A DNA stretch of 64,000 nucleotides. Source: Bacteroidota bacterium (GTDB lineage Bacteria > Bacteroidota > JABWAT01). The stretch's first letter is position 1, and each line of letters begins with the position of its first letter. Under the pieces are notes generated by a model that was given only the letters and a program-made list of their open reading frames with translations, was not told the origin of the DNA and searched no databases. Position numbers and translations under genes: made by a program. The stretch lies in the NCBI GenBank assembly GCA_023151185.1, contig JAKLJL010000010.1, positions 64,001-128,000 on the forward strand, read 5' to 3'. This document shows positions 423 to 40,140 of this stretch, piece by piece.

Positions 423-482
423 GCTGAACCGAAAAACAACCAGAGATCAGGCAGTAAAATTTAACTTAAATGGAGTTTTTAA

Positions 483-1106: not shown

Positions 1107-1131
1107 GTAACTGCTAAACCGGAGCCAAATA

Positions 1132-1554
1132 ATGAACAAACCCGAAACTACCCTGGAAGAGATTCAGGTAAATGTAAAGGTCAAGCTTGCATTTCTATGG
1201 ACGAGTTTTATGTTTCTTTATCTCTATGTCGATCATTTCCACTTGTATATGCCCGGCAAGATAGATTCTATTTTACAGGGAAAGGTTTTCGTATTTGAAA
1301 TCACCCAGGGTTTTATATTTACCGCACTTTCTCTGGCCACAATTCCGATGCTGATGATTTTTCTTTCTGTTTCGCTTAAGGCAAAATCAAACCGGCTGGT
1401 AAATTTAATTGCTGCAACCTTCCATATTCCGTACATGCTGTTTAACCTGGCCGGTGAAGCCTGGGTGCACATGGTATTTGCTGCTGCTGTGGAAGTTGTT
1501 CTTTTAGTGCTCATAATCCGGTATGCCTGGAAATGGCCCCGTATTGAAGCCTGA
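1132..1554 (+). CDS. Small integral membrane protein of unknown function (3-4 transmembrane segments)
   Basis: The 140-aa ORF has hydrophobic segments (FLWTSFMFLYLYV, IFTALSLATIPMLMIFLSV, AAAVEVVLLVLII). Only a short gap separates it from the upstream gene. Confidence 0.5.
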   Translation: MNKPETTLEEIQVNVKVKLAFLWTSFMFLYLYVDHFHLYMPGKIDSILQGKVFVFEITQGFIFTALSLATIPMLMIFLSVSLKAKSNRLVNLIAATFHIPYMLFNLAGEAWVHMVFAAAVEVVLLVLIIRYAWKWPRIEA

Positions 1555-1692
1555 ACAAATGACAGATTAAACACAAACCACTTACAGGCGTTTGGAAAAG
1601 TGGGTTCAGGGTTTTGAAATTCCCTTCGACGCCAGGCAGAAAAACGATAATCGAAACCTTTACCAGACACTTCATTAACTAATAGACTATAG

Positions 1693-2385
<693 letters not shown>

Positions 2386-2474
2386 TTTTCACTTGCCTAA
2401 AGCAAAGGGCAAGGTTTTTGATGAAAAACCCAGAACTGATTTTAAAAAAAGAAATTGGCATCAATAATTGTTCA

Positions 2475-2651
2475 ATGAAACCCATAAATCTTTCCTTCTT
2501 ATTATCCGTTTTACTGTTGGTTTCAAAGCAAACTTATGCACAGCACTCAGATACATGGTTTGTTAAAGACCGCCACATCAATACAAAAGTGTTAAAAGAA
2601 GGCTCTCATCGCTATCTCGTGAACTTTAAGATTGGTAAAAATGCACCCTGA
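2475..2651 (+). CDS. Possible small secreted protein (58 aa)
   Basis: The internal Met yields a classical signal peptide MKPINLSFLLSVLLLVSKQTYAQ. The ORF is small with no recognisable domain, so this call is weak. Confidence 0.25.
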   Translation: MKPINLSFLLSVLLLVSKQTYAQHSDTWFVKDRHINTKVLKEGSHRYLVNFKIGKNAP

Positions 2652-3334
2652 AGCTGGATTCAGGTCCGGATAAGAACCAGTGAACGTACCATGCAAAATA
2701 AAAAACCGGTTATCCTAATAACACAGCAGCGGGGAGACAAAGAATCACCCATTCTTACAGTAAAATCGGTATAGGATGATTATACAATGATACCAGTTGC
2801 TCATGAGTTTGGGAATAAACAGCGGTTTTGCGCTGCCCAGATAAATAGTGAAAGTAAAACTGTACTGTATAACGGCAGCCTGGTATCAGATGCTGATACT
2901 TTAAAACACAGGAAAGCCTTATGGTTAGTTATTTGAAAGCATAGGGAAAAATTATTTTTTAACCGGCATCTTGATATGGAAGTTTTTTAAACACTCACCT
3001 ATAAAAATGGAGTACCATTTTTTGGACCCTTCTACGACCCCGGAAGGTCATCGTCTTTTGCAAAAGCAGCTTAAACAGTTGCTGGCGCAGCACAACTAAA
3101 CGGGCAGGATAATCAGGCAATTGATTGCAGGTTATCAGAAGTGTGGCACAAATCGAGTATTTGATACTGAAACTGGTGAAAAGATGGGGAATCCAATTGA
3201 GACACTTCAACAGATGAAGAAAGAGTTAAGTTTGGGGTGCCCTGGAAAAGAAGGCCTGGTCATTCCTTTTAAAATGGAAAAATTCCAGCTCTTAATCATT
3301 TCATAACTTTGAAAATTTAAAACCCGGCAACACG

Positions 3335-4417
3335 ATGAGTCGAATTTATTTAACTTTTCTTTTTATATTGAATCTCACCAGCTTATGGGCTCAGAAGACG
3401 GCTCCATTTGCCGACTCACTCCGGATTGTATACCATATTCCAGAAATTAGTTATGCCGTAGTTGATTCCAAATCAATATTGGAAATTGCGGCATTGGGCA
3501 AACACTCTGTTGCTCTTCCGGATACTGCAACCCTAAACGATAGATTTCACATTGGTTCTAATACCAAAGCAATGACGGCATTTATAATTGCCAGATATGT
3601 GGAAAATGGAAAGTTGAAATGGAATACAAAATATTTTGATTTATTTCCTGAATGGAAGGAAAAAAGCAAGCCTGAATATGCCAGCATTACTCTTCAGGAT
3701 TTGCTTTCACATCAAGCAGGAATACAACCATTTCAAGGAGACGGCGACCCTCAAATACCTGACTACAAAGGAACAAACCAGGAAAAGAGAAAACAATTCG
3801 GACAATTCGTATTAACACAAGAGTCTGTTACTCTCGATGAAAAAACTCCGTTTGTTTATTCAAATGCGGGATATACCCTGGCAACATTAATGTTAGAAAA
3901 GGTTACAGGGAAGAGTTGGGAACAGCTAGTCCAAAAAGTATTCAATGAAGATTTAAAGCTGAATGTAGAATTCTCGTGGCCGGAAAATCAAAAACAGAAG
4001 GATACCTGGGGGCATAGTTTTGTAAATGGCAAACTCATCCCAGTTCCATCAACAGTTGATTTTCATTTGGATTATACAGAACCTGCAGGAGATTTAAATA
4101 TCAAGTTAAATGACTACATCAGATTTATTCAATTGAATTTAGAAGGGCTAAACGGGCAAAATAATTATTTGACGGCCAAAACCTATTCATTTATTCATCG
4201 AGGAATAGAGAACTATTCTTTGGGTTGGTATAATATTTATGAAAACGGCAAGGAGCTTTCAACACATTCAGGTACAGTTGGAACCTATTATACACTTGTT
4301 CAAATCGATAGAATTAAAGGGATTGCCTATGTAATATTTACAAATTCCTTTAATCAAGATACCCAACAAGGTGTAAGGCTTTTGATGAGAAAAATGAAAG
4401 AAAATTACGGCAGCTAA
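3335..4417 (+). CDS. Serine hydrolase of the beta-lactamase family (class C beta-lactamase / esterase-like), secreted
   Basis: A signal peptide is followed by the S-x-x-K motif (IGSNTKAM), Y-x-N (YSNAGY) and an HSG triad variant. It is 360 aa. Confidence 0.75.
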   Translation: MSRIYLTFLFILNLTSLWAQKTAPFADSLRIVYHIPEISYAVVDSKSILEIAALGKHSVALPDTATLNDRFHIGSNTKAMTAFIIARYVENGKLKWNTKYFDLFPEWKEKSKPEYASITLQDLLSHQAGIQPFQGDGDPQIPDYKGTNQEKRKQFGQFVLTQESVTLDEKTPFVYSNAGYTLATLMLEKVTGKSWEQLVQKVFNEDLKLNVEFSWPENQKQKDTWGHSFVNGKLIPVPSTVDFHLDYTEPAGDLNIKLNDYIRFIQLNLEGLNGQNNYLTAKTYSFIHRGIENYSLGWYNIYENGKELSTHSGTVGTYYTLVQIDRIKGIAYVIFTNSFNQDTQQGVRLLMRKMKENYGS

Positions 4418-5012
4418 AATCGGTTTAGTTTCACTGTTTTCAGTCGGCAATTGGGGGGAATGGGACTTATTCTTCTTTGCCGGCATATTTTTATTATTTT
4501 CCGGTTTTCGCCATTTTATTCCTTTTAAGCTACTTTAGATGACGCTTCCGGAGATGCCTAAAAAAACCTGATTTCATTTTTAAACCCTTCCAAATATCCG
4601 CCATCTATGCTCTGATCAGTAATGACATTTGGTGGTGCCTTTCTTTTCATGGTAAATACTGAGAAGTAAAAAGGAAAGGCGGTAAAGTATTTTAGCACTT
4701 TCGGACGGGTTCCCTTCTTTTATTACAATTCGCACCTAAACCTGATGCATTTAGTCGCCATGATTTTTGCAGAATTCGCAGGGTTGTGCTGAAGAATTAT
4801 AATTTTACAAGATCGGGTATCTGAACCACCATCATTAAAAGGATATGGTTTTCAACTTCGGGAGGTTTGTTCTATTTGGATTTTTGTGATAGTTTTAGTA
4901 TATCCGGTGTGCAGAAAACTTGAAAGTTATATACAAAATCACAAAAACAAATGGTAGTTGATTTACCATCACGAGAAAGAGAACAGTCAGAACAGGTACC
5001 CTAAAAAAACAG

Positions 5013-5489
5013 ATGAGAATCAGAGAAGCTAAAATTGCAGATATCAAACAAATTCAAATCATAAGGAATTCTGTTAAAGAAAACACGTTATCCAATCCAG
5101 ACCTGGTGACAGACAAAGACTGTGAAGAATTTATTACTGTTAGAGGAAAAGGATGGGTTTGTGAATTTGAAGAACAAATTGTTGGATTTGCAATTGTTGA
5201 CTTGAAGGAAAATAACATTTGGGCTCTGTTTTTAGATCCTGAATTTGAGGGAAGGGGTATTGGTCAAACCTTGCATAATACCATGCTGGACTGGTATTTC
5301 AAACAGACAAAAGAAAAAATCTGGCTGGGAACTGCCTTCAATACACGGGCAGAAAAATTTTACAGTAAAGCAGGCTGGACCGAAGCAGGAACACATGGCA
5401 TCAAGGAAATCAGGTTTGAAATGACCTTTGAAGACTGGACTACCATCTCAAACTCACTATCACCACGTAAAAATCAGGATTTAACTTAA
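5013..5489 (+). CDS. GNAT family N-acetyltransferase
   Basis: It has the acetyl-CoA binding signature (EFEGRGIGQTLHNTML) and is about 158 aa. Confidence 0.75.
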   Translation: MRIREAKIADIKQIQIIRNSVKENTLSNPDLVTDKDCEEFITVRGKGWVCEFEEQIVGFAIVDLKENNIWALFLDPEFEGRGIGQTLHNTMLDWYFKQTKEKIWLGTAFNTRAEKFYSKAGWTEAGTHGIKEIRFEMTFEDWTTISNSLSPRKNQDLT

Positions 5490-5505
5490 CAAGGAAAAAC
5501 AATCC

Positions 5506-5937
5506 GTGCCAACCATCAATCCGCAGATCAACTTCAACGGTAACGCAGAAGAAGCCTTTACCTTTTACCAGTCCGTTTTTGGTGGAGAGTTTGTCAACAT
5601 CATCCGGTTCAAAGATCTGGAAGGGCAGGGGTTCCCGGTTGCTGAAAGCGAAAAAAATAAGCTAATGAACATTGCCCTGCGGATCGGACCGAATTTTCTG
5701 CTGGGGAATGATGTCCCTGAAAGTATGGGAAAAACCAATGAAAATGAGAACAGAAGTAAAATTTCCGTAACCGCAGAAAACAAAGAAGAAGCGATCCGGA
5801 TCTTTGATGGTCTTTCATCCGGCGGACAAATTGAAGTCCCCCTGGAGGAAGGTCCCGGCGGAACCTATTTCAGCATGTTCAGGGACAAATACGGAATTGA
5901 ATGGATGGTGACTTTTGATCCGGATGCAAAACGATAA
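5506..5937 (+). CDS. VOC (glyoxalase/bleomycin resistance) superfamily protein, PhnB-like
   Basis: The N-terminal block INFNGNAEEAFTFYQSVFGG and the C-terminal block GIEWMV match the PhnB/3-demethylubiquinone-9 methyltransferase-like domain family. Confidence 0.6.
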   Translation: MPTINPQINFNGNAEEAFTFYQSVFGGEFVNIIRFKDLEGQGFPVAESEKNKLMNIALRIGPNFLLGNDVPESMGKTNENENRSKISVTAENKEEAIRIFDGLSSGGQIEVPLEEGPGGTYFSMFRDKYGIEWMVTFDPDAKR

Positions 5938-5985
5938 GGAACGGCGGACTGTCAGGTTAACCCCTGATTTTAATTTTCAGAGTTT

Positions 5986-6576
5986 ATGACGAACAAAACA
6001 ACCGGAAGCCGGAACCCTGTCTGGTGGCTTTTTCTGGCCCGTTTAACTGCTGCGCTACTGGCATTTTCATGCGGGGAAACGCCTGACAATAAAAATTTAC
6101 AGCCTCCGCAAGAGGTGACCCGGGTATCAGAATCAGACTACACGGTCCCGGAACCAGCAGAAACCCTGCTAACAGAAGATTCCGATTCTGAGTATTTCTA
6201 CATTGTCACAGCAGATACCCATCAGAACTATTTTTTCCTTGATAGAAAAATGCTGGAAATGGCCGGCCGGCTGAACCTGCCGATTGACACGATGGGACGG
6301 TATTATAATCCGGAGAAAAACAAAATCATCCTGCCGGAAACTGATGAGGATGATGTTTGGGCAGGTGATTATTACCCGCGCAGATTCCCTTCCGATTTTC
6401 TGAGCCTTGAACACCTGAGTTATTATCAGTTGTCTGCAAACCCGAAAACGATTGCACTCATTGCCGGCATATTCGAAACTGAACAACGTGCAGACAGTGC
6501 CGTCTCCTTTTTAAAGAAACAGGGTGAATCTGCCTTTTCATTCAGGGCTAAACTCTTTACCGGTTGCCTGCACTGA
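5986..6576 (+). CDS. Hypothetical lipoprotein
   Basis: It has a signal peptide with a lipobox (LLAFSC). The mature part is acidic and low-complexity, with no recognisable domain. Confidence 0.5.
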   Translation: MTNKTTGSRNPVWWLFLARLTAALLAFSCGETPDNKNLQPPQEVTRVSESDYTVPEPAETLLTEDSDSEYFYIVTADTHQNYFFLDRKMLEMAGRLNLPIDTMGRYYNPEKNKIILPETDEDDVWAGDYYPRRFPSDFLSLEHLSYYQLSANPKTIALIAGIFETEQRADSAVSFLKKQGESAFSFRAKLFTGCLH

Positions 6577-8804: not shown

Positions 8805-11369
8805 GTGAAAAAACAGACGATGGAAAAAATTCTTATAATTGGCGGCGTAGCAGCCGGTGCAACGGCCGCAGCCAAGGCCCGCAGGGTTTCCTCAACGGCC
8901 CAGATTACCATGCTCGAAGGCGGTCCGGATGTTTCATTTGCCAACTGCGGATTGCCGTATTACATTGGCGGGGATATCAAAAACAGGTCAAGTCTGATCC
9001 TGCAAAGTCCCGAAAGTTTTAAAGAACAGTACAATGTCGACGTCCACATCCATACAACCGTGACGTCCATTGACCGGAAGAATAAACGGGTTCAGGCCAC
9101 CCATGGTCTAACCGGAGAGAAAAAGGAATTCAGTTACACCAAACTGATTCTTGCTCAGGGCGGGAGACCGATCAAACCGACCCTTCCGGGTTCTGATCTG
9201 AGTCATGTTTTTACTCTGTGGACTCTGGACGATATGGATAAGATCCATGAGTTTATCTCCACGAAAAAACCGAAAAGTGCAGTTGTTGTTGGCGGTGGTT
9301 TTATCGGACTTGAAATGGCGGAGGCTCTGGCGAAACGTCAGCTTTCTGTGCATGTGGTAGAAGCGATGCCCCATGTCATGAGCATTATGGAGGCCGAGAT
9401 TGCCGGACTGATCCAGGCGGAAATGGAAAGCTATGGGGTCCGGCTTCACACCGGCACCAGTGTCAGGGAAATTACACCGGGCGAGGTGAAATTAGATAAC
9501 GGAGAGTCGATCAGTGCCGGAATGGTTCTGCTGTCAATCGGCGTCCGCCCGACCCTTCAGTTGGCAAAAGACTCTGACCTAACACTTGGGGATGCCGGTG
9601 GCCTGCTGGTTAACGAGTATCTGCAGACCAGTGACCCCGATATTTACGCCGCCGGTGATATGGTTGAAATCGTCCACAGGGTCAATCAAAAAAAGGTCCG
9701 GATTCCGCTTGCCGGTCCTGCGAACCGCCAGGGCCGGATTGCTGCTGAAAATGCCCTGGGCGGATCCCATCCGTACAAAGGGTCGATCGGTACCTCGGTT
9801 GTCCGGGTTTTTGAAATGGTAGCCGGGACCACCGGGTTGTCTTTAAAACAGGCGAAAAGTGCCGGAATTGATGCGGATGCTGTCACCGTTCATAAGGAAC
9901 ATCACACTTCTTACTATCCGGATTCTGAACAGGTGACAGTTCTGCTGGTTTTTGACAGAAAGACCGGTGTCATTCTGGGTGGTCAGACCGCCGGATATAA
10001 AGCTGCCGACAAGCGGCTCGATGTTATTGCAACTGCAGTTGCCTCACGTTTAACCATTCATGATCTGGCGGATATCGATTTTGCCTATTCGCCACCGATC
10101 GGGACAGCAAATGATGTTCTGAATATGGCTGCCTACTCAGCAGAGAACAAACTTTCCGGGTTCAGTGCCTCGGTTCCGGTTTCTGAACTGGATGAATTTG
10201 TCAAAACCCATTCACCGGTAATTCTGGATGTCAGAGATGTGTTTGCGTTTGAAAAAAGTCATATCGCCGGGGCAATTCACATCCCGTACGAAGTACTTTC
10301 CGAAGAGATGGACTCTGTTCCCGCTGACCGGCCGGTTCTGGTCTATGATGAGACCGGTAAAAAGGGACATCAGACTCTGAGAAAACTGACCGGCGCCGGG
10401 TATCCGAGGGTTTGGACTGTTTCCGGCGGACATACCTCCCTTCAGCGGTTTGCCCGTGCGATCCCGTTCACTCATTTTTCCCTCGGGCTTCTTCCGGTTG
10501 AGAAAAAGTCACTCCACGCTCAGGAAGTAAAGACTGAGAAGAAAGAAGAACCGGTTAAAACTCAGGAAGGTCCTCTGGTTGTCGATGTCAGAACACCCGG
10601 TGAGTTCAGCCGTGGCGCCTATCCGGGTGCTGTGAATATTCCGGTTGATGAACTTCCGGCCAGGCTGGCTGAGCTGGGTCAGGATCCGGCCAGAGACATC
10701 ACGGTTTACTGTGCTTCGGGTGCCAGATCAGCTTTTGCAGAAGGACTTTTAAAACAGGTCGGGTTTACCAATGTGACCAACGGCGGCGGGCTGAATGCCA
10801 TGATGGCCCGTCAGAAGAAAAGTGACTCTCCGGCCGGACCGGCAAAGCCCTTCATCGTGGATGTCAGAAGTGAAGGTGAGTTCAGCCGTGGTGCCTATCC
10901 CGGTGCAGTGAACATTCCGGTTGATGAACTTCCTGCCCGGCTGGCAGAATTCGGTTCGGATCCGGCCAGAGACATCACGGTTTACTGTGCTTCGGGTGCC
11001 AGATCAGCCTATGCAGAAGGACTTCTGAAGCAGGCCGGCTACACCAATGTGACCAATGGAGGCGGACTGAATGCCATGATGGCCCGTCAGAAAAAGAGTG
11101 ATGCACCTGCAGCAGAACCGGCGGGTCAGCTTATTGTGGACGTCCGGTCGCCGTATGAATTCATGGGAGGCGCCTATCCCGGTGCGGTCAATATCCCGCT
11201 GGATGAACTTCAGTTCAATCTGGATAAACTTGGCAGCAAGTCACGGGAAATTGTCGTTTATTGTGCATCGGGTGCCCGTTCTGCCTATGCCCAGCAGATG
11301 CTTCGTCAGCTTGGGTTCCAGAATGTGAAAAATGGCGGCGGACTGATGCAGATGATGCGCAGCCGGTAA
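8805..11369 (+). CDS. CoA-disulfide reductase-type pyridine nucleotide-disulfide oxidoreductase fused to four rhodanese domains (three catalytic CASGARS copies)
   Basis: The N-terminus has the FAD/NAD(P) Rossmann fold (ILIIGGVAAGATAA) and the redox cysteine context (SFANCGLPYYIGG). The C-terminus has one non-catalytic rhodanese followed by three rhodanese domains that each carry VYCASGARS. Two of these domains are near-identical at the DNA level. Confidence 0.85.
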   Translation: MKKQTMEKILIIGGVAAGATAAAKARRVSSTAQITMLEGGPDVSFANCGLPYYIGGDIKNRSSLILQSPESFKEQYNVDVHIHTTVTSIDRKNKRVQATHGLTGEKKEFSYTKLILAQGGRPIKPTLPGSDLSHVFTLWTLDDMDKIHEFISTKKPKSAVVVGGGFIGLEMAEALAKRQLSVHVVEAMPHVMSIMEAEIAGLIQAEMESYGVRLHTGTSVREITPGEVKLDNGESISAGMVLLSIGVRPTLQLAKDSDLTLGDAGGLLVNEYLQTSDPDIYAAGDMVEIVHRVNQKKVRIPLAGPANRQGRIAAENALGGSHPYKGSIGTSVVRVFEMVAGTTGLSLKQAKSAGIDADAVTVHKEHHTSYYPDSEQVTVLLVFDRKTGVILGGQTAGYKAADKRLDVIATAVASRLTIHDLADIDFAYSPPIGTANDVLNMAAYSAENKLSGFSASVPVSELDEFVKTHSPVILDVRDVFAFEKSHIAGAIHIPYEVLSEEMDSVPADRPVLVYDETGKKGHQTLRKLTGAGYPRVWTVSGGHTSLQRFARAIPFTHFSLGLLPVEKKSLHAQEVKTEKKEEPVKTQEGPLVVDVRTPGEFSRGAYPGAVNIPVDELPARLAELGQDPARDITVYCASGARSAFAEGLLKQVGFTNVTNGGGLNAMMARQKKSDSPAGPAKPFIVDVRSEGEFSRGAYPGAVNIPVDELPARLAEFGSDPARDITVYCASGARSAYAEGLLKQAGYTNVTNGGGLNAMMARQKKSDAPAAEPAGQLIVDVRSPYEFMGGAYPGAVNIPLDELQFNLDKLGSKSREIVVYCASGARSAYAQQMLRQLGFQNVKNGGGLMQMMRSR

Positions 11370-15839: not shown

Positions 15840-16217
15840 ATGAAATCCGACCCAAAACAAATGCTGATTCTGATTGCCGGACCCTATCGGTCAGGAACAG
15901 GAGATGACCCGGTTCTGATCCGGAAAAACCTGAATGACATGACTGAAATGGCCCTTAAAGTCTATGAAAAAGGTCACATGCCGCTCATTGGTGAGTGGTT
16001 TACCCTGCCGATGATTGAAGCTGCCGGGTCGTCTAAAACCGGTGATGAAATCTTCAACCGGTACTTCCACCCGGTTTCAGTTCAGCTTGTCGGATTCTGT
16101 GATGCTGTTCTCAGAATCGGCGGTCCCTCAGCCGGTGCCGATGAAATGGTTCAAACCGGGCTGAAAAACGGGAAAAGGATATTTATGTCGCTGTCAGAAA
16201 TACCTGAATTGGGCTAA
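15840..16217 (+). CDS. Hypothetical protein, possibly nucleoside 2-deoxyribosyltransferase-like fold (DUF4406-like)
   Basis: The 125-aa ORF begins MLILIAGPYRSG, which looks Rossmann-like. The assignment is low-certainty. Confidence 0.3.
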   Translation: MKSDPKQMLILIAGPYRSGTGDDPVLIRKNLNDMTEMALKVYEKGHMPLIGEWFTLPMIEAAGSSKTGDEIFNRYFHPVSVQLVGFCDAVLRIGGPSAGADEMVQTGLKNGKRIFMSLSEIPELG

Positions 16218-16238: not shown

Positions 16239-16673
16239 ATGAAACCTGTGCACAGTTGGATTCTGCTTTTTCTGGCAGCTTGTCAGCCGGAAACCCCGTC
16301 ACAAACCGGGGGGGTAATACCGGGGCAGGAGGTTGTTGCAGAGTATTTTTCTGTTTTCAACCGCCATGACTGGTCAGGACTTGCCGGGTTTTATGCTGAT
16401 TCTGTCATCCTGAAAGATCCTGTACTTGGAACCGCTCCGGTGACGGTTTCAAGGCAGGATATTGTGAAAAAATATCAGGATCTGCACCAGTCCATTCCGG
16501 ATGTTAAGGATTCAGTTGTAGCGGTTTACCCGGCTGGCTCTGTGGTAACAGTGGAATTCATTTCAACCGGGACAGGTCCTGACGGAAAACCGTTCACCCT
16601 ACCGATTTGTACTATCTTCGAATTCAAAGCGGGTAAGATCATCCGTGATCTGACTTATTACGATAATTTCTGA
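16239..16673 (+). CDS. SnoaL-like / NTF2-like domain lipoprotein
   Basis: It has a signal peptide with Cys (LLFLAAC) followed by VVAEYFSVFNRHDWSGLAGFYADSVIL, typical of the SnoaL_2 fold. Confidence 0.55.
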   Translation: MKPVHSWILLFLAACQPETPSQTGGVIPGQEVVAEYFSVFNRHDWSGLAGFYADSVILKDPVLGTAPVTVSRQDIVKKYQDLHQSIPDVKDSVVAVYPAGSVVTVEFISTGTGPDGKPFTLPICTIFEFKAGKIIRDLTYYDNF

Positions 16674-16786
16674 CTGAGTGAGAGTTCCTGAAGCGGGATT
16701 AGTTAACCGGCTTGCAAACCAGCCGGGATGAAATTAAAAGGTTACTTTTTATCTTTGCCATTTCACCTTCAATCCTCAGGACTTCC

Positions 16787-17929
16787 ATGTCGAATTCTTC
16801 CACCTATTCCGTTTTTCCGGATTCCAAAAACCATTATGAAATCCTGGATGGCCTCAGAGGCGTTGCTGCCCTGATGGTCATCGTCTTCCATCTTTTCGAA
16901 ACTTTTTCTGGCGGAAACCATTTTACCCAGATCATTAACCATGGCTATCTTGCCGTAGATTTTTTCTTTGTTTTATCCGGATTTGTAATCGGATATGCCT
17001 ATGATGACCGCTGGGGGAAGATGACACCCGGCGAATTTTTCAAACGGCGCCTGATCCGGCTTCATCCGATGATTCTTGCAGCAATGGTTACTGGTGCTGT
17101 CGGATACTATTTCAGTGCATCACCGGTTCTTTTTCCGCAAATCAGCACGACCCCGGTTTGGGAACTTCTGCTTATTATGGTAATCGGGATGACCCTTCTG
17201 CCGGTCCCTCCTTCACTGGACATCCGGGGGTGGGCAGAAATGCATCCTCTGAACGGTCCGGCCTGGTCCCTGTTTTTTGAATATGTGGCTAATCTTTTAT
17301 ATGGACTGATCTTCAGGCGGTTTCCGGTCTGGCTTCTGTCAGTTTTTGTTGCCTTTTTTGGTTTAGCTCTGATCCGGTTTGCCGTTTTCGGGCCAAACGG
17401 TGACGTAATCGGCGGCTGGTCGCTTGACCCTGTTCAGTTTCAGGTTGGTCTTATCCGGTTACTTTATCCCTTCTTTGCCGGACTTCTGCTTTCCAGAATC
17501 GTAAAACCTGGACGGCTTCGTCATGCCTTCCTGTGGTGCAGTGCTGCTGTAATCCTGATATTTTCAATACCACGGATTGGGGATGCTGACACTTTGTGGA
17601 TGAATGGGCTTTATGATTCACTGGCGATTATTTTTCTGTTTCCGCTGATTGTCTGGCTGGGAGCCTCAGGCAAACCTGAAAGCCCGCTTCAGGAAAAAAT
17701 TATCCGGTTTCTGGGGGATATTTCCTACCCGGTTTATATCCTGCACTATCCGCTGATTTATATTTTCACCGCATGGGTAGTTGATAATCAGGTTCCGATG
17801 GAAGCCGCCTGGCCCCAGGCACTGGCCGTCTTTTTTGGTTCGGTCGGGCTGGCCTGGATCGTACTTAAGTTTTATGATCTGCCAGTACGGAAATGGCTTG
17901 CTTCTAAATTTCTCAACAGGGCTCACTGA
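16787..17929 (+). CDS. Acyltransferase family 3 (OafA/YrhL-like) membrane O-acyltransferase
   Basis: The N-terminal block LDGLRGVAALMVIVFHL is followed by about 10 transmembrane segments. The start is taken at the ATG at 16787, verified in the sequence. Confidence 0.75.
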   Translation: MSNSSTYSVFPDSKNHYEILDGLRGVAALMVIVFHLFETFSGGNHFTQIINHGYLAVDFFFVLSGFVIGYAYDDRWGKMTPGEFFKRRLIRLHPMILAAMVTGAVGYYFSASPVLFPQISTTPVWELLLIMVIGMTLLPVPPSLDIRGWAEMHPLNGPAWSLFFEYVANLLYGLIFRRFPVWLLSVFVAFFGLALIRFAVFGPNGDVIGGWSLDPVQFQVGLIRLLYPFFAGLLLSRIVKPGRLRHAFLWCSAAVILIFSIPRIGDADTLWMNGLYDSLAIIFLFPLIVWLGASGKPESPLQEKIIRFLGDISYPVYILHYPLIYIFTAWVVDNQVPMEAAWPQALAVFFGSVGLAWIVLKFYDLPVRKWLASKFLNRAH

Positions 17930-17931
17930 AA

Positions 17932-19044
17932 ATGTCTGTCCACAGCCGGCTCACTGACCTTCCAAAACCAGACAGAATGACCTCCCGGGAACTGCTTCAG
18001 AAGATAGTCTCTTTCCAGACCGAAGGCCACCCCTTTTATGCAGATGGGCTGGTTCCTTCACAGCGATACAATTCGGTTCTGCGATGGAAACGTGAGGATA
18101 ACAACATTTTCTTTACAGCCAGTATCGTGTTTGTTCTTCAGAATCTGGCTGATTTTGTTCCGGAAGAGGAAAAGCTGCTGATCCGTGACTTTATCAGGAA
18201 GGCAGTCCTGGCCTACCCGCATTACCGGAATAAACATGGCCTGGATACGTATTCATTCTGGCCGACTGACGGATCACCCCATTTCCCGAACGGGTTGATT
18301 TTCAGGCACCTTCACTCAGCCCGTATTCCCGATGATTCGGATGATACGGCACTGGTTTTTTTAACCTCATCCCAAAAACGGGAAACCACACTCTGGCTGA
18401 AGGATAAACTGATTCAGCATGCCAATCTGTCAAAAAAACAGATCCGGCAAACCTATCCGGATTATAAAAACCTGAAGGCATACTCGACCTTTTTCGGTAC
18501 CAATATGTATATTGAATTTGATTTCTGTGTTTTAACCAATATTCTGTTCTGGGTTTTTCAGAATCAATTGCCTGTGAATCAGCATGATTCAGATTCCATC
18601 ATCTTTTTAAGGTCAGTTATTCTGAACCGTCAGCATCTTGATGCCCCGTTCAGGGTAAGCCACAACTACCCGCATCCGGTTCTGATTCTTTACCATCTCT
18701 CCCGCCTGCTGGCTGCTTTTGACATCCCCGGTCTTTCTGAGTTAAAACCGGGTATTATTCAGGATCTGACCAGGCTTTCCAAAATGGAAAAGGGGATCAT
18801 GAACCGGATTTTGATTTCGACTTCTCTGATACGGTTGGGTCACCGGCCGGATTTTGAACCGGATCTTGTTACAGATGAACCCCGGTGGACTTTTTTTATC
18901 GCCGGCATGCTGACAGCACTGGATACACCGCTGACATCCCGTTTTGCCCATCTGGAAGTGTTTCACCTTAATTATGTTTGTGAAGCCCACCGGCAGGCGT
19001 TGCGGTATGAAAACCTGGTTCTGAGTCAAACATTAAGGAGTTGA
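17932..19044 (+). CDS. Hypothetical protein with DxDDTA motif (class II terpene-cyclase-like acid motif)
   Basis: The 370-aa ORF is soluble and aromatic-rich and contains ...RIPDDSDDTALVFL. It lies 3 bp after the acyltransferase and 2 bp before the GNAT gene. Confidence 0.5.
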   Translation: MSVHSRLTDLPKPDRMTSRELLQKIVSFQTEGHPFYADGLVPSQRYNSVLRWKREDNNIFFTASIVFVLQNLADFVPEEEKLLIRDFIRKAVLAYPHYRNKHGLDTYSFWPTDGSPHFPNGLIFRHLHSARIPDDSDDTALVFLTSSQKRETTLWLKDKLIQHANLSKKQIRQTYPDYKNLKAYSTFFGTNMYIEFDFCVLTNILFWVFQNQLPVNQHDSDSIIFLRSVILNRQHLDAPFRVSHNYPHPVLILYHLSRLLAAFDIPGLSELKPGIIQDLTRLSKMEKGIMNRILISTSLIRLGHRPDFEPDLVTDEPRWTFFIAGMLTALDTPLTSRFAHLEVFHLNYVCEAHRQALRYENLVLSQTLRS

Positions 19045-19045
19045 A

Positions 19046-19591
19046 ATGGCCGTTTTGATTGAAACGCCCCGGTTCAGGTTAAGAGAAATGGAGGCTGGTG
19101 ATCTTGAGATTCTGTTCAGGCTGGATTCTGATCCGGTCGTTCACCGGTATCTCGGTAACCATCCGGTTACCTCCCGTGATGAAATCACCGGAATGATTCT
19201 TTATGTAAGAAAACAGTATGCTGAAAACGGATTTGGCCGGTGGATGGTTGAGGTGAAAGCAACCGGAGAATGTGCCGGATGGGCCGGGTTGAAACGGGTT
19301 CATGACCACGTGAATAACCGGACCGGTTTTGTCGATCTGGGATATCGGCTTCTGCCTGAATTCTGGGGGCAGGGAATTGCCACCGAATGTTCAGCAGCAT
19401 CCCTTGTCTATGGGTTCAACTCCCTTCATCTGACCGAAATCTCGGCTGCTGCCCATGTTCAGAATGATGCGTCAAATCATATTCTCGGGAAACTGGGGTT
19501 TCAAAAAACCGGAACATTTCTGTTTCACGGATCAGAAAATAACTGGTATGATCTTTCAGAAGCAGACTGGCGCCTGAACAGGGCTCCCTGA
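19046..19591 (+). CDS. GNAT family N-acetyltransferase (RimJ/RimL-like, Acetyltransf_3)
   Basis: It begins TPRFRLREMEAGDLEILFRLDSDPVVHRYLG and has the catalytic core WAGLKRV...GYRLLPEFWGQGIATE. Confidence 0.75.
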   Translation: MAVLIETPRFRLREMEAGDLEILFRLDSDPVVHRYLGNHPVTSRDEITGMILYVRKQYAENGFGRWMVEVKATGECAGWAGLKRVHDHVNNRTGFVDLGYRLLPEFWGQGIATECSAASLVYGFNSLHLTEISAAAHVQNDASNHILGKLGFQKTGTFLFHGSENNWYDLSEADWRLNRAP

Positions 19592-20633: not shown

Positions 20634-22814
20634 TCAGGCAAACCGGTGATTGATTTCTTCCATAATTTTCAGGGCTGCAAACGGGATTTTGGTCCCGGGT
20701 CCGAAAATGGCGGTAGCCCCGTGTTCATAGAGAAAATCGTAATCCTGAGCCGGAATTACTCCGCCAACGATTACAATGATATCCTCACGCCCCAGTTTTT
20801 TCAATTCTTCGATCAACTGGGGAAGCAGAGTTTTGTGCCCGGCTGCAAGAGAACTCATCCCGACCACGTGAACATCATTTTCAACTGCCTGGCGGGCGGT
20901 TTCTTCCGGAGTCTGGAATAACGGACCGACGTCGACATCAAATCCCATATCTGCATAGGCGGTAGCAACCACTTTGGCTCCGCGGTCATGTCCGTCCTGA
21001 CCCATTTTGGCTATCATGATTCTGGGACGGCGGCCTTCTTTCGATGCAAATTCATCGGTCAGTTTTCTGACTTCAGCCACATGGTTGTCTTCTTCGCTGG
21101 CATATTCTGAACTGTAAACACCTGAAATGGTTCTCACAACGGCCTGATACCTTCCCCAAACTTTTTCCAGTGAATAGGAGATTTCTCCCAAGGTTGCTCT
21201 GACTCTGGCTGCTTTCACCGAGAGGTCGAGCAGATTTCCTTCACCTGTTTCAGCACACCGGGTCAGGGCTGCGAGTGCCGCCTGAACATCTGCCTCATTC
21301 CGGTTCTTTTTCAGTTCCTGAATCCGCTTAATCTGGCTCAGCCGGACGGCAGTATTGTCAACTTCCAGAATTTCAATGGCAGCTTCTTTTTCCAGGCGGT
21401 ATTTATTTACCCCGACGATGGTTTCTCTGCCTGAATCAATTCTGGCCTGGCGGCGTGCTGCTGCCTCTTCGATCCGCATTTTCGGGATTCCTGCTTCGAT
21501 TGCTTTGGTCATTCCGCCATAGGATTCCACTTCCTGAAGGTGGGCCCAGCCTTTTTCGATCAGTTCCCGGGTGAGGGCTTCAACATAATAACTTCCACCC
21601 CACGGGTCAATCACTTTACAGATATTGGTTTCATCCTGCAGGTACAACTGGGTATTCCGGGCGATCCGCGCAGAGAAATCGGTTGGAAGAGCAATGGCTT
21701 CATCAAGGGAATTCGTATGCAGAGACTGGGTGTGCCCCAGGGCAGCCGCCATGGCTTCAATGCAGGTTCTGGCCACATTGTTGAACGGATCCTGTTCGGT
21801 CAGGGACCAGCCGGAAGTTTGGGAGTGAGTTCTCAGGGCCATGGATTTCGGATTTTTCGGATTGAAATCCTTGACGATTTTTGCCCAGAGAACCCGGGCT
21901 GCCCGCATTTTAGCTACTTCCATGAAGTAATTCAGACCCTGTGCCCAGAAAAAGGACAGGCGGGGAGCAAAGGAATCGACACTCATGCCGGCTTTGATCC
22001 CGGTTCTGATGTATTCCAGACCATCGGCGAGTGTGTAGGCCATTTCCAGATCGGCAGTGGCACCGGCTTCCTGCATGTGGTAACCCGAAATGGAAATCGA
22101 GTTAAACTTCGGCATATTTTCGGATGTGAATCTGAAAATATCCGCAATGGCCTTCATTGAAGGTTCCGGCGGGTAAATGTACGTGTTCCGGACCATATAT
22201 TCTTTCAGGATATCATTCTGAATGGTTCCGGTGAGCAGGTCATGGGCGACACCCTGTTCCTCTGCTGCGACAATGTAAAAGGCCAGAACCGGCAGAACGG
22301 CACCGTTCATGGTCATTGAAACCGACATTTTGTCCAGTGGGATTTTGTCGAACAGGATTTTCATATCCTCAACTGAGTCAATGGCAACACCGGCCTTCCC
22401 GACATCACCCACCACCCGCTGATGGTCAGAATCATAACCACGGTGAGTGGCCAGATCGAAGGCAACCGAAAGGCCCATCTGCCCGGCAGCAAGATTCCGT
22501 CTGTAAAAGGCATTCGATTCTTCTGCCGTCGAAAAACCGGCATACTGGCGAACTGTCCAGGGTTTATTGACATACATGGTGGAATAAGGACCCCTCAGAT
22601 AGGGCGGAATCCCGGCCATGAATCCGATATGATCGGCATTTTTAATGTCCTCGGCTGTATACAAAGGTTTTACAGCAATCTGCTCCATGGTTTCCCAGAT
22701 GAATTCACCGGGTTTTTTCCCGGTTTCTTTCTCGAACCGGGCTGCCCAGACATCGTAACTTTCCGGGTCTGTCTTCAGATTCAGATCCAGTTTAGTAAAA
22801 TCAGGTTTTTTCAT
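20634..22814 (-). CDS. mutB: Methylmalonyl-CoA mutase large (alpha) subunit with C-terminal B12-binding domain
   Basis: The 726-aa ORF has the mutase catalytic-domain blocks and the C-terminal B12-binding module ([23 protein letters not shown]). Confidence 0.9.
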
Positions 22815-22852
22815 TTCAGTACTCGTTTAATTTAAAAATCCAGGTTATTCGG

Positions 22853-25048
22853 TCAGAATTTGCTCCAGATACCGGTGAGGGTTTTAATCACATCGGCACC
22901 AAGGAAAATAAATTCGTCCACGCCGGCGGCTTTGTGGGCTTCGACCTGTTCTTTCGGGTATCCGGCCAGAACAACCACAACTCCAGGATTTCCGGATTTG
23001 ATCTCCTTCACAATAACCGGTACAAGTTCCGGATAGGTTTCATCGGTCGAGCAAATGACCACAACCGGAGCCTTCGATTCCAGTGCGCCCTTTGCGGCAA
23101 GTTCGGCAGTTTCAAATCCGGCAGGAGAGAGGACTTCGAATCCACCCGTTTCAAAAAATCCCCGGCTGAAATCAGATCTTCCCTTGTACTGGACAAGCGG
23201 TCCCATGTTGGCCAGAAAAACCTGTGGCAGGTGGCCTTTCTGAGCTTTGTAATTCAGGGCTTTTTTTCTTAGACCCGAAAAGTCGGCGGCAACCGAAAAG
23301 GGTATAAAGGCAGGTACTGTGGGGCCATTTTCTTTTCCGGACCGTAAAATCTGTGTTAATTCACCCAGAGTAGCCCCTTCGAGAGCTGCTTCAATGGCAA
23401 GATCAACTTGTTTTTCTGATTTCTCGGCACCGGCTTTTTCCAGTGTTTCCAAAATACGGATGTGTTTTTCCTGTCCGCCTGAAACCCGGTATTTCTGAAG
23501 GTACTCAGCCCGTTTAGTGAAAATGGCGTCAGCATCAGGAACAACCGGTTTGGGGAGATCCTCCCGGATGTTGGCATAGGCATTAACCCCAACGATAACC
23601 GACTTCCGTTTGGCGATATCGGCCCGGCGGGCATCGGCTGCTTTTCTGACTTCTTCTGCCAGATAGCCGGTTTGCAGAACTGCGGCCATTCCGTCTTTTT
23701 CCTGAATTTGTTTAAAAAGCTCCCAGGACGCTCCCGCCAGGTCGGCGGTCAGTTTTTCAATAAAGTAGGAACCTCCGGCAGGGTCAATCAGACTCGACAG
23801 ATGTGACTCTTCAGCGAGAATTATCTGGGTGTTCCGGGCAATCCGCCGGCTGAACTCATCCGGAACCGACCAGGATTCGTCGAAAGCATGGGTGTGCAGA
23901 CTCCCGACTCCGCCAACAGCTGCAGAAAATGCTTCTGTTGTGGTTCTGAGCAGATTAACGTACGGATCAAAATCTGTCTGGGTCATTGAAGACGTTTTTG
24001 CATGGATGGACATCGGATAGTCGGCCGGATCCAGTCCGTAAGCGGTTAAAATCTGGGTCCAGAGAATCCGTGCCGCACGGAATTTGGCGATTTCCATGAA
24101 GTAATGGGTCCCGATACCGAAAGTAAACCGGATGCAGGGGGCAATGTCAGAAGGGGAAACACCCCGTTCGGTCAGTTCTTCGAGATAGGTGACCAGTGTT
24201 GCCATTGCCGCTGCCAGTTCCTGAACCGCAGTTGCCCCGGCTTCCTGATAAACGGTGGTATCAATCCCAATGGTTTTCAGATTGATCTTGTGGATCCTGA
24301 CCCAGTTGGTTGCCGTTTTCATTTCATTGTAAATCTGATTCAGGGAAACCGGGAGTTGACCTTCTGCTGCGAGATAGCCCAACGGATCCGATTCAACAGA
24401 ACCGGTCAGTCCGGATGTTGCCCGGCCGTCTTTTTTCAAAGAGGCAATCAGAAGGGCAAGAAAAGGGAGTCCTGAATATCCGGCTTTTACAAAAACCGGG
24501 TAAGAATCGAGGGCAATTCCGGAAAAGGCTCTGCTGAGGCTTTGGGTTCCCGAAACGGAAAGCCCGCCAATGCCAACTTCACCGGGTTTTGCAAAATCTG
24601 CATCAACTCCACGGCGGGTTGCCCGGTCCAGAACGACTGAAATGGCGGTTTGGCCCCGGTCCAGATCCCGTTTAAGGATGTCATTGAAGTCTTCTGCAAG
24701 TCCAGCCGGAATGTCCTGACAGATTTTCCAGGGTGTGGCAACCGGTCCCTGGGCCTGACTTCCTCTTGATTGCAATCCACCTCCCGGAAATTCCTTTGCA
24801 ACAGGAAGATCCCGGATGTCTTCGGCCGTGTAGATTGGCTGAAGATCAATGCCTTCATAGGTTTTGGTGATCAGTTTTTTATCGTAAGGGGCACCTTTCA
24901 GATCGGCTTCGGCGACTTTTTTCCAGTCTTCAAACGAAGGGGCGGTAAATTCCGCTTTCAGGTTTAGTTTTTTATCAGCTTGCACGTCGGATCCTGTTGT
25001 GATTTTGTTAATTTCACATCGGGCCGGAATGAATATACCACCGGCCAC
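22853..25048 (-). CDS. mutA: Methylmalonyl-CoA mutase small (beta) subunit
   Basis: The 731-aa mutase-family paralog sits directly upstream of mutB on the same strand. It lacks the DxHxxG B12-binding His motif at its C-terminus. The true start may be the GTG at about 24985, which is preceded by AGGA. Confidence 0.8.
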   Translation of the reverse strand: MAGGIFIPARCEINKITTGSDVQADKKLNLKAEFTAPSFEDWKKVAEADLKGAPYDKKLITKTYEGIDLQPIYTAEDIRDLPVAKEFPGGGLQSRGSQAQGPVATPWKICQDIPAGLAEDFNDILKRDLDRGQTAISVVLDRATRRGVDADFAKPGEVGIGGLSVSGTQSLSRAFSGIALDSYPVFVKAGYSGLPFLALLIASLKKDGRATSGLTGSVESDPLGYLAAEGQLPVSLNQIYNEMKTATNWVRIHKINLKTIGIDTTVYQEAGATAVQELAAAMATLVTYLEELTERGVSPSDIAPCIRFTFGIGTHYFMEIAKFRAARILWTQILTAYGLDPADYPMSIHAKTSSMTQTDFDPYVNLLRTTTEAFSAAVGGVGSLHTHAFDESWSVPDEFSRRIARNTQIILAEESHLSSLIDPAGGSYFIEKLTADLAGASWELFKQIQEKDGMAAVLQTGYLAEEVRKAADARRADIAKRKSVIVGVNAYANIREDLPKPVVPDADAIFTKRAEYLQKYRVSGGQEKHIRILETLEKAGAEKSEKQVDLAIEAALEGATLGELTQILRSGKENGPTVPAFIPFSVAADFSGLRKKALNYKAQKGHLPQVFLANMGPLVQYKGRSDFSRGFFETGGFEVLSPAGFETAELAAKGALESKAPVVVICSTDETYPELVPVIVKEIKSGNPGVVVVLAGYPKEQVEAHKAAGVDEFIFLGADVIKTLTGIWSKF

Positions 25049-40085: not shown

Positions 40086-40140
40086 TGGTATCTCCGAAAA
40101 AAACCGGGCAGAGTCTTTTCAGGACCTGCCCGGCAGTTGG

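Follow-up and report, generated by a model that had tools for sequence, protein, structure and literature searches.

A probable monodomain class II terpene cyclase of an uncharacterised Bacteroidota-wide family, encoded between two acyltransferase genes

Squalene-hopene and oxidosqualene cyclases are beta-gamma didomain enzymes of 600-750 aa which contain QW repeats. To our knowledge, MstE was the first monodomain class II cyclase, and the characterised beta-only members of this class comprise only MstE, the HAD-fused cyclase domains of the drimenol synthase AsDMS and of AstC, and one enzyme from Sorangium described in a 2025 preprint. The existence of monodomain, beta-only class II cyclases is documented by MstE and the Sorangium enzyme (PMC12414744; bioRxiv 10.1101/2025.09.20.677545). 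A fusion of a HAD domain with a standalone TC-beta domain has been proposed (PMC12365925; bioRxiv 10.1101/2025.09.20.677545), in which a monodomain of the Sorangium type is the ancestor that gave rise to AsDMS (bioRxiv 10.1101/2025.09.20.677545), and the biochemical study of basal monodomain cyclases has been urged as a means of rooting the class II tree (PMC12414744).

The 64-kb stretch of DNA analysed here (the window) encodes three adjacent genes on one strand, the middle one of which is the subject of this report.

16787..17929, + strand: upstream gene, polytopic membrane acyltransferase-3 (Acyl_transf_3), 380 aa (Pfam PF01757, E 2e-38)
17932..19044, + strand: middle gene, homolog of a standalone TC-beta (class II terpene cyclase beta-domain), 370 aa (ORF, AF2/Foldseek, family profile)
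19046..19591, + strand: downstream gene, GNAT N-acetyltransferase (RimJ/RimL-like Acetyltransf_3), 181 aa (Pfam PF13302, E 1e-29)

The ORFs and both junctions read as given in the preliminary description of this DNA, with a gap of 2 bp between the acyltransferase-3 and middle genes (cac-TGA-aa-ATG) and of 1 bp between the middle and GNAT genes (agt-TGA-a-ATG). Since the gaps are this short and the strand is shared, the three genes are probably co-transcribed in the source lineage, as judged from spacing only. A sigma-70 and terminator scan, which does not cover Bacteroidota promoters, stayed at the shuffle background, and an Rfam search of the 64-kb window returned zero matches. The start of the acyltransferase-3 gene was set at the ATG at 16787, as in the gene call of a 95%-identical contig (L001); a longer ORF with a TTG start begins at 16712. 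The acyltransferase-3 contains at least seven TM-like segments, while the NCBIfam matches of the GNAT gene are weak and below threshold. Around the trio, the window carries genes of mixed function (arylamine NAT, ZIP, DUF1330, DUF4386, SnoaL, TMEM175 and methylmalonyl-CoA mutase), and no isoprenoid genes are found near the middle gene.

The preliminary description could name no family for the 370-aa middle protein, and the searches were indeed empty in Pfam (even at E <= 10, where SQHop_cyclase_N/C is also missing), in NCBIfam and, with phmmer and the single sequence, in the PDB. Pfam likewise yielded neither a HAD domain nor a glycoside-hydrolase HMM match, and the 370 aa make up one domain. 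The protein is soluble and aromatic-rich, as had been noted, with no TM-like segment (top 19-residue hydropathy of 1.6) and an F+W+Y content of 11.6%. Two family profiles were used, A1 of 49 sequences and the broader A2 of 148 sequences, and residue conservation was scored in 271 homologs. Against PDB sequences, A1 gave no meaningful match, while A2 matched AsDMS (E 2e-8 and 2e-7) and AstC (E 5e-4 and 2e-3), with just one further, insignificant chain at E <= 10; MstE was absent from the PDB sequence searches made by HMMER at E <= 10 with the single sequence, A1 or A2. The reciprocal search with a 160-aa AsDMS segment retrieved a single fragment (P0324, annotated PF28380), and hhalign of the family against this AsDMS-like fragment covered only the region from the acid motif to the conserved Asn (probability 54%, E 1e-4), with the same motif aligned.

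The AF2 model of the middle protein (pLDDT 88.6, pTM 0.89) is composed of about 12-14 helices. In Foldseek searches against the PDB, AsDMS takes the first nine places (E 1.8e-8 to 9.6e-8, TMq 0.61-0.65, some 362 aligned columns; E 1.8e-8 and TMq 0.64 for the best match), followed by SsDMS, MstE (E 0.04, TM 0.52/0.55), Tpn2 and human OSC, and every one of the top 11 matches is a class II sesquiterpene cyclase. Non-terpenoid alpha/alpha barrels are found only at E >= 0.012 and TM <= 0.47, and the lower matches include 2-epimerases, GH76 and GH8. As modelled, the middle protein is predicted to adopt the beta-domain alpha/alpha-barrel fold of the class II terpene cyclase superfamily, and not the unrelated fold that would have spoken against the cyclase suggested earlier. 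Three sites are predicted to form the acid machinery of this barrel.

18334..18351, + strand: DxDDTA motif (D135-S-D137-D138-T139-A140), predicted acid motif, with D137 as the predicted general acid and D135 as its partner
18538..18540, + strand: N203 codon, Asn that is predicted to orient the general acid through a hydrogen bond (alignment, conservation)
18667..18669, + strand: Y246 codon, Tyr predicted to activate the general acid (alignment, conservation)

The DxDDTA motif, carried by the peptide SARIPDDSDDTALVFLTS, occurs once in all six frames of the 64-kb window. Short acidic motifs recur by chance at genome scale (for DxDDTA, 2.6e-4 per protein at the composition of the middle protein), and the match could on this ground be a coincidence in an unrelated helical protein. 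Such a coincidence is extremely improbable, as the motif is conserved in the 271 homologs (D135 100%, D137 99%, D138 86% with D/T/C/V/S at this position, T139 91%), and as the fold and the profile both point to class II cyclases, with the motif exactly on their catalytic acid; the Foldseek, A2 and hmmalign evidence refutes it. The motif put forward in the preliminary description, together with the conservation of its aspartates, is thereby borne out. A variable third Asp beside a strict middle Asp is also the pattern in characterised class II cyclases (PMC12232559).

As aligned by HMMER/hmmalign, D135 and D137 fall on D331 and D333 of AsDMS, the motif of which is D331-x-D333-T-T, and hhalign agrees; the AsDMS variants D331A/N and D333N are inactive (PMC12365925). 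N203 is kept in 270 of the 271 homologs and is aligned by hmmalign with AstC N324 and AsDMS N388, where AstC N324A is inactive (PMC13244436). Y246, kept in the same proportion (270/271), is aligned with AsDMS Y427 and AstC Y361, and both AsDMS Y427F and AstC Y361F are inactive (PMC12365925, PMC13244436). In AstC, N324 and Y361 orient the acid D273 (PMC13244436), and the aligned N203 and Y246 are predicted to be acid-positioning hydrogen-bond partners as in AstC and AsDMS. The many conserved aromatic residues of the family include F109, Y184, W/F187, Y254 and F322, of which position 187 is aligned with AsDMS Y373, while F281, F318, F328, F509 and F518 of AsDMS have no mapped counterpart.

The middle gene is provisionally identified as encoding a cytoplasmic monodomain class II terpene cyclase, a single beta barrel from an uncharacterised Bacteroidota-wide family, nearest to the TC-beta domains of AsDMS and AstC, and we regard this as likely. 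The fold, the A2 profile and the conserved acid residues all support the small, single-domain class II cyclase which had been guessed at from the motif. By homology, D137 would be the 'middle' Asp, kept in place and activated by D135, N203 and Y246, and would protonate the terminal C=C of an isoprenoid chain lying in a predicted central hydrophobic pocket of the barrel, an event that would start the carbocation cyclisation cascade. The pocket may be closed by a conserved loop.

18229..18321, + strand: residues 100-130, highly conserved aromatic/His-rich loop of low model confidence (A1 conservation, pLDDT)

This loop contains residues which are invariant in A1 (N100, L104, T106, Y107, F109, W110, T112, H117, F118, N120 and G121), and the AF2 pLDDT values for residues 101-130 are 77/63/55. 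By analogy with the loops of MstE and AsDMS (PMC12414744, PMC12232559), it is probably a mobile active-site cap which stands in for the gamma domain.

The family is Bacteroidota-wide, occurs in at least 329 species and is present almost universally, as a solo gene, in Spirosomataceae. The homologs number 403-518 at 90% clustering and form 476 clusters at 50% identity, in 329 GTDB species, with lengths of 290-482 aa (median 362), and Pfam detects no HAD domain in five of the longest members (P0199, P0201, P0262, P0266 and P0270). Signal peptides are predicted in about 1/4 to 1/3 of the divergent relatives sampled.

The neighbourhood of the gene was surveyed at 80 GTDB reference-genome loci and in metagenomic contexts, the related loci being retrieved with the A1 profile. 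L001 (95% identity), L004 and L005 (both 87%) are the only contigs that keep the trio of acyltransferase-3, cyclase and GNAT genes, and the order of the trio is absent at every locus with a relative of 59% identity or less. Neither an acyltransferase-3 nor a GNAT gene lies beside the cyclase gene at any of the 80 GTDB loci or in nine other metagenomic contexts, where the neighbours are unrelated. No neighbour cluster is common to more than 26 of the 86 loci, and all the sharing is genus-level synteny. Even between the 95% and 87% relatives the local gene order differs, with SnoaL lost and an M23 peptidase inserted.

The preliminary description had suggested that the locus, with an acyltransferase on either side, may decorate a lipid, terpenoid or glycan, and had proposed the conservation of the neighbourhood as a check. 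A single pathway in which the acyltransferase-3, the cyclase and the GNAT act together towards an acylated or acetylated terpenoid, lipid or glycan is consistent with the likely co-transcription (short gaps, shared strand) and with the retention of the trio in the three related contigs. We nevertheless consider it improbable, since neither acyltransferase recurs beside the cyclase elsewhere, all sharing of neighbours is synteny within genera, the order shifts even among close relatives, and the surrounding window genes are functionally mixed. Since retention of the trio is confined to relatives with identities of 87% or more, the data do not support a joint decoration locus, and the reading as a conserved acyltransferase-cyclase pathway is rejected for want of conservation across lineages. 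The acyltransferase-3 and GNAT genes are probably recent, lineage-specific neighbours and not conserved pathway partners.

A second region of the protein bears on the substrate of the predicted cyclase.

18505..18522, + strand: M192-E195-D197 segment, with M192 and E195 at the positions of the diphosphate-binding R378 and R380 of AsDMS

In AsDMS, R368, R370, R415, Y416 and R503 (construct numbering) grip the diphosphate (PMC12232559; bioRxiv 10.64898/2026.08.29.748031). As aligned by hmmalign, AsDMS R378, R380, R425 and Y426 correspond to M192, E195, H244 and N245 of the middle protein, so that four of the five clamp residues are mapped and replaced, while R503 lies beyond the aligned segment. 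The replacements are family traits, with Met at position 192 in 94% and Glu/Asp at position 195 in 94% of the 271 sequences. Because the Arg/Tyr clamp has given way to Met/Glu/His/Asn, the head group of the substrate would be either bound differently, possibly via Mg2+ coordinated by the conserved acidic residues E195, D197, D56 and E360, or not a diphosphate.

The nearest relatives by structure and sequence all cyclise FPP, and the middle protein agrees with the Sorangium enzyme in size, in monodomain architecture and in the position of the motif (DxDDT at 135-139 vs DxDVT at 134-138; bioRxiv 10.1101/2025.09.20.677545). The middle protein may thus use FPP as a drimenyl-diphosphate (or other sesquiterpenyl-diphosphate) synthase, like the Sorangium enzyme or the cyclase half of AsDMS, and an unlinked phosphatase would then carry out the dephosphorylation. 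This assignment is unlikely in view of the conserved replacements in the clamp, the more so as the Sorangium enzyme retains R188 and Y234 (equivalent to AsDMS R380 and Y426), positions taken in the new family by Glu/Asp and a variable residue. Besides, no FPPS, AraC or ABM cluster as in drimenol loci is found in the window or at the 86 loci, and part of the family is putatively exported, away from FPP.

Many (alpha/alpha)6 barrels hydrolyse or isomerise glycans and other polar substrates. The lost diphosphate clamp, the signal peptides of many divergent members and the presence of 2-epimerases, GH76 and GH8 among the lower Foldseek matches would all suit a TC-beta fold and acidic dyad recruited to non-terpenoid, possibly extracytoplasmic acid catalysis (e.g. 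glycan or polar-substrate hydrolysis or isomerisation), or to a binding protein; the genomic contexts are also never terpenoid, and some members lie next to peptidase, amidohydrolase or arabinose-utilisation genes. Such a function is nonetheless rather unlikely, as the homologs keep the complete Asp/Asp/Asn/Tyr protonation network known from AsDMS and AstC at 99-100%, conserved aromatics are numerous in the protein, the glycosidase and epimerase folds score at least 5 orders of magnitude worse than AsDMS in Foldseek, and glycoside-hydrolase HMMs do not match.

Returning to the terpene cyclase, a more specific proposal may be made, which we hold only tentatively. The family may consist of free-living relatives of the cyclase portion found in HAD-fused drimenol synthases, which have a rebuilt head-group site and turn a substrate different from AsDMS-style FPP into a cyclic isoprenoid, with cytoplasmic and exported branches across the Bacteroidota. 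As the catalytic tetrad is intact but the head-group site is different, the family is a candidate for a new cyclase specificity and a new cyclic isoprenoid in Bacteroidota. Standalone beta domains are treated as a missing evolutionary piece in recent papers, and the present family is large, has no Pfam or NCBIfam model and is present in the easily cultured genera Dyadobacter, Spirosoma, Runella and Larkinella. If the assignment is true, it would give experimental access to the debate whether monodomain cyclases are ancestral to the beta-gamma class II cyclases, and it would imply that common Cytophagales of soil and freshwater contain a cyclic terpenoid lipid yet to be discovered. Export would be unusual among terpene cyclases, should the exported branch prove real.

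Among the known systems, SHC/OSC and the bacterial class II diterpene cyclases share the beta-domain DxDDTA motif and the protonation-initiated chemistry (predicted for the middle protein), but they are two-domain beta-gamma proteins (450-750 aa) whose active site lies at the domain interface and which match SQHop_cyclase or prenyltransferase-repeat Pfam models, whereas the middle protein has a single domain and no such match. Membership of the SHC/OSC group is rejected, as the protein is a single domain with neither a QW nor a Pfam match.

MstE, the merosterolic acid synthase of Scytonema (PDB 6SBB), is a monodomain beta barrel of about 350 aa like the middle protein, its active site is capped by a loop instead of a gamma domain, and the head group of its substrate is not a diphosphate. 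It is nevertheless a weaker structural match than AsDMS with no HMMER match, and it uses DxD and sits in a biosynthetic gene cluster, whereas the middle protein has DxDD and no prenyltransferase or cluster context. The fungal HAD-like drimane cyclases AstC/AacA (PDB 22TY, 22TZ; PMC13244436), reached by the A2 profile (best E 5e-4), share the Asn and Tyr which orient the acid, but are HAD-fused and FPP-specific. The Sc terpene synthase beta of Sorangium cellulosum Soce836 (WP_129572421), compared here by its published description, is a mono-beta-domain class II sesquiterpene synthase that resembles the middle protein in size and in its standalone beta domain (bioRxiv 10.1101/2025.09.20.677545), though from a different phylum.

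The best match by both structure and profile is AsDMS of Aquimarina spongiae, a HAD-TC-beta protein of the 'DMS-1' clade (PDB 9MHS, 9MLO, 9M7D/E/F). Both proteins are from Bacteroidota, the cyclase domain of AsDMS is likewise beta-only, and its D-x-D-[D/T]-T motif, N388 and Y427 correspond to D135/D137, N203 and Y246. AsDMS differs in its length of about 536 aa with an N-terminal HAD phosphatase domain, in its Arg/Tyr clamp and in the FPPS and AraC-like regulator cluster that accompanies DMS-1 genes in marine Flavobacteriaceae, and its identity to the middle protein is only about 15-17%.

The three genes under study lie on the forward strand of the window as follows.

16787..17929, forward strand: gene 1, membrane acyltransferase, 380 aa from ATG (Pfam Acyl_transf_3, E 2e-38); a longer ORF has a TTG start at 16712
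17932..19044, forward strand: gene 2, middle protein (cyclase candidate), 370 aa
19046..19591, forward strand: gene 3, GNAT, 181 aa (Acetyltransf_3, E 1e-29)

The ORFs and junction sequences found in the window agree with the coordinates and gaps of the preliminary description, gene 1 being separated from gene 2 by 2 bp (...cac TGA aa ATG...) and gene 2 from gene 3 by 1 bp (...agt TGA a ATG...). The trio is likely co-transcribed in the window's lineage, as judged from gene spacing, since promoter and terminator scans gave background level only. Directly upstream is a SnoaL/NTF2-like gene (16239..16673, forward strand) encoding a lipoprotein-type N-terminus (MKPVHSWILLFLAAC), which is found in the related locus L001 and missing from L004, and it is adjoined by a gene for a 125-aa protein without family (15840..16217, forward strand), conserved in both loci.

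The middle protein was described earlier as soluble and without a nameable family; it contains no transmembrane-like segment and had no match in Pfam or NCBIfam, nor in the PDB when searched as a single sequence. Its AlphaFold2 model, built from an alignment of 49 close homologs (pLDDT 88.6, pTM 0.89), is nearly all-helical with about 12-14 helices. In a Foldseek search of the PDB, crystal structures of AsDMS, the Aquimarina spongiae drimenol synthase with a HAD domain fused to TC-beta, take all nine top places (E 1.8e-8 to 9.6e-8, TMq 0.61-0.65) and align over about 362 columns at 15-17% identity. The next matches are SsDMS, a drimenyl-diphosphate synthase from Streptomyces (E 5e-3 to 9e-3), MstE, a cyclase with a single domain (TM 0.52/0.55), the diterpene cyclase Tpn2 and the oxidosqualene cyclase of humans. 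Alpha/alpha barrels of a generic kind, namely 2-epimerases, GH76, GH8 and complement thioester domains, reach only E >= 0.012 and TM <= 0.47. The middle protein is very probably a homolog of the class II cyclases with the same fold. Residues 100-130 are nearly invariant among the 49 homologs, yet modelled with low confidence; they would likely form a mobile lid in place of the gamma domain, as MstE and AsDMS have capping loops.

The DxDDTA-bearing peptide noted earlier (RIPDDSDDTALVFL) is present in the middle protein, and the motif occurs once across all six frames of the window. With a chance rate of 2.6e-4 per protein at this composition, the motif by itself would be no proof across a whole genome. 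P133, D134, D135, D137, D138 and T139 are invariant in the 49 close homologs, and in 271 sequences covering the whole family D135 is conserved in 100%, D137 in 99%, T139 in 91% and D138 in only 86% (D/T/C/V/S), this variable third motif position also covering the DxDTT of AsDMS and the DxDVT of a Sorangium enzyme. An N-terminal segment (17995..18060, cyclase residues 22-43), L-Q29-S-x-G-D-x-Y/F-F-x-x-G39-L-F-P, is conserved as well and presumably bears a loose resemblance to the QW repeat (Q-x3-G-x-W) of triterpene cyclases; it is matched by no Pfam repeat model.

Searched against the PDB, a profile of 148 diverse members matched AsDMS (E 2e-8 and 2e-7) and AstC, a HAD-like drimane cyclase from fungi (E 5e-4 and 2e-3), the sole remaining match at E <= 10 being one insignificant ribosomal-protein chain. 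One HMM served to re-align the window protein with segments of AsDMS and AstC; AsDMS is given in native numbering, its numbering schemes differing by 10 (bioRxiv 10.64898/2026.08.29.748031).

Residue correspondence from the HMM alignment
AsDMS D331 / D333 / T334 / T335: window D135 / D137 / D138 / T139
AsDMS N388 and AstC N324: window N203
AsDMS Y427 and AstC Y361: window Y246
AsDMS D382 and AstC D318: window D197
AsDMS R439: window R258

Activity is abolished by D331A/N, D333N and Y427F in AsDMS (PMC12365925) and by N324A and Y361F in AstC, where N324 and Y361 orient the acid D273 (PMC13244436). As N203 and Y246 align with these residues and are each conserved in 270 of the 271 sequences, the whole predicted Asp/Asp/Asn/Tyr protonation network is retained, and its positions are the most conserved ones in the family. 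When P0324, an AsDMS-like fragment, was compared by hhalign, the same region aligned. This fragment carries the precomputed Pfam annotation PF28380, which does not cover the window-protein family, as it is found on none of the listed homologs. Fold, profile match and conserved catalytic residues together support the earlier idea of a small, single-domain class II terpene cyclase, and the middle protein is probably an active isoprenoid cyclase.

AsDMS grips the FPP diphosphate with R368, R370, R415, Y416 and R503 (construct numbering; PMC12232559; bioRxiv 10.64898/2026.08.29.748031). Four of these five clamp residues align with M192, E195, H244 and N245 of the window protein, position 192 being Met and position 195 Glu/Asp in 94% of the 271 sequences each. 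The equivalent Arg and Tyr are retained, as R188 and Y234, in the FPP-cyclising Sorangium mono-beta enzyme (bioRxiv 10.1101/2025.09.20.677545). The site for the head group is thus built differently: the diphosphate might be bound via Mg2+ on conserved acidic residues, like in beta-gamma cyclases, or the substrate might be other than a prenyl diphosphate, like that of MstE.

N-terminal signal peptides with Bacteroidota-style ...AQ|Q/D cleavage contexts occur in about 40 divergent representatives, a quarter to a third of the sample (e.g. P0223, P0195, P0187, P0270, P0245, P0241 and P0209), which are typically 375-400 aa long and keep D135/D137/N203/Y246; the window protein has none, nor does its Cytophagales clade. 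The predicted export would be unexpected for a cyclase using cytoplasmic prenyl diphosphates, and could fit a membrane-lipid substrate accessible on the periplasmic side, or else a function unrelated to terpenoids. It is mainly because of these members that confidence in the cyclase reading is not higher; an exported class II terpene cyclase, if true, would be unusual. In P0201 (482 aa), a homolog without Pfam match, the signal peptide is followed by ~90 aa rich in His/Gln/Ala before the cyclase domain, a stretch that looks repetitive (…HQSAAKGIHQ…IHQPAIQNTIHIPQTASQ…).

The gene order acyltransferase-3/cyclase/GNAT is kept in loci L001 (95% identical), L004 and L005 (87% identical), even among which the surroundings shift (SnoaL lost, M23 peptidase inserted), and is absent at <= 59% identity, where the neighbours are unrelated.

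Neighbours of relatives at <= 59% identity
L002/L003: SIR2 upstream with a 4-bp overlap, ribonucleotide reductase downstream
Runella: OMP beta-barrel gene, DUF6807 gene
Spirosoma: sugar nucleotidyltransferase
Dyadobacter: NifU, ferredoxin-reductase-type gene
Further loci: amidohydrolases and S15 peptidase; M16 peptidase and PorV; arabinose-utilisation genes

The SIR2 gene overlaps the start of the cyclase homolog by 4 bp in nine loci at 54-59% identity. In Dyadobacter (e.g. L041:7041-8096 and L047:5176-5781), a ferredoxin-NAD(P) reductase-type gene (FAD_binding_6/NAD_binding_1/Fer2) directly follows the cyclase homolog in 19 of the 20 loci with this reductase gene, and a NifU/Nfu gene precedes the homolog in 16 of the 19 loci with NifU/Nfu. 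When all ORFs of 86 loci were clustered, the most widely shared neighbour family reached at most 26 loci, every shared adjacency was genus-level synteny, and no isoprenoid-pathway genes were among the shared neighbours; nor were any found among ORFs of at least 180 aa in roughly the window's first 47 kb. The cyclase gene is therefore a 'solo' gene, and the earlier proposal that the acyltransferases cooperate with it in decorating a lipid, terpenoid or glycan is unsupported and improbable, as the trio is confined to relatives at >= 87% identity. Just downstream of P0140, a divergent DxDVT homolog, a methylmalonyl-CoA mutase pair lies on the opposite strand (L089:12444-15095), as in the window (20634..25048); this may be an ancestral synteny remnant, with the GNAT and TMEM175 genes inserted later.

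The family comprises 403 homologs at E <= 1e-3 in a 90%-clustered collection, 518 by profile search and 476 clusters at 50% identity when 1.84 billion representatives were scanned exhaustively with HMMER, with relatives in 329 GTDB species and a median length of 362 aa (range 290-482 aa). Named members are all 'hypothetical protein' without precomputed Pfam domains, and named hosts are Bacteroidota, chiefly Cytophagales/Spirosomataceae (Runella, Dyadobacter, Spirosoma, Larkinella, Telluribacter, Persicitalea, Rhabdobacter, Ravibacter). No close reference exists for the organism of the window, the best GTDB match to the window protein being only 58% identical; T9SS Por_Secre_tail proteins encoded in the window confirm Bacteroidota. 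Other features of the window are listed below.

1..6000: GC 0.38-0.40 (0.47-0.53 in the remainder), may be horizontally acquired; O-methyltransferase (1693..2385), beta-lactamase-family protein (3335..4417), two ORFs without family (483..1106 and 5986..6576)
8805..11369, forward strand: 854-aa pyridine-nucleotide-disulphide oxidoreductase (CoA-disulfide-reductase-like) fused to four rhodanese domain matches
36582..41853, reverse strand: two adjacent genes for large NHL-repeat proteins with T9SS C-terminal sorting domains, one additionally with GDSL lipase and CBM30-like regions

The family is classified as an uncharacterised, Bacteroidota-wide subfamily of predicted standalone TC-beta cyclases. 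Though it introduces no new principle, it is a sizeable unannotated enzyme family which touches an unsettled question of evolution and is directly testable in cultured organisms. AsDMS is proposed to originate from fusion of HAD with a standalone TC-beta (PMC12365925; bioRxiv 10.1101/2025.09.20.677545), and a possible monodomain root of the class II tree has been discussed, with biochemical study of such enzymes urged (PMC12414744). The AsDMS clade of that survey was restricted to sequences of 550-650 aa, so proteins like the window cyclase would be missed.

Few class II cyclases of the beta-only type are known: MstE (Moosmann 2020, as given in PMC12414744), AsDMS and AstC in their TC-beta domains, and one Sorangium enzyme (bioRxiv 10.1101/2025.09.20.677545). 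The window family does not belong to the HAD-TC-beta enzymes AsDMS and AstC, as it has no HAD domain (none in five long members scanned), no Arg clamp and no cluster, nor to the MstE type, to which it has no sequence link, nor to SHC/OSC, as it is single-domain; with AsDMS, AstC, MstE and the Sorangium enzyme it shares the fold and the predicted catalytic network, and it would work in the manner of these enzymes.
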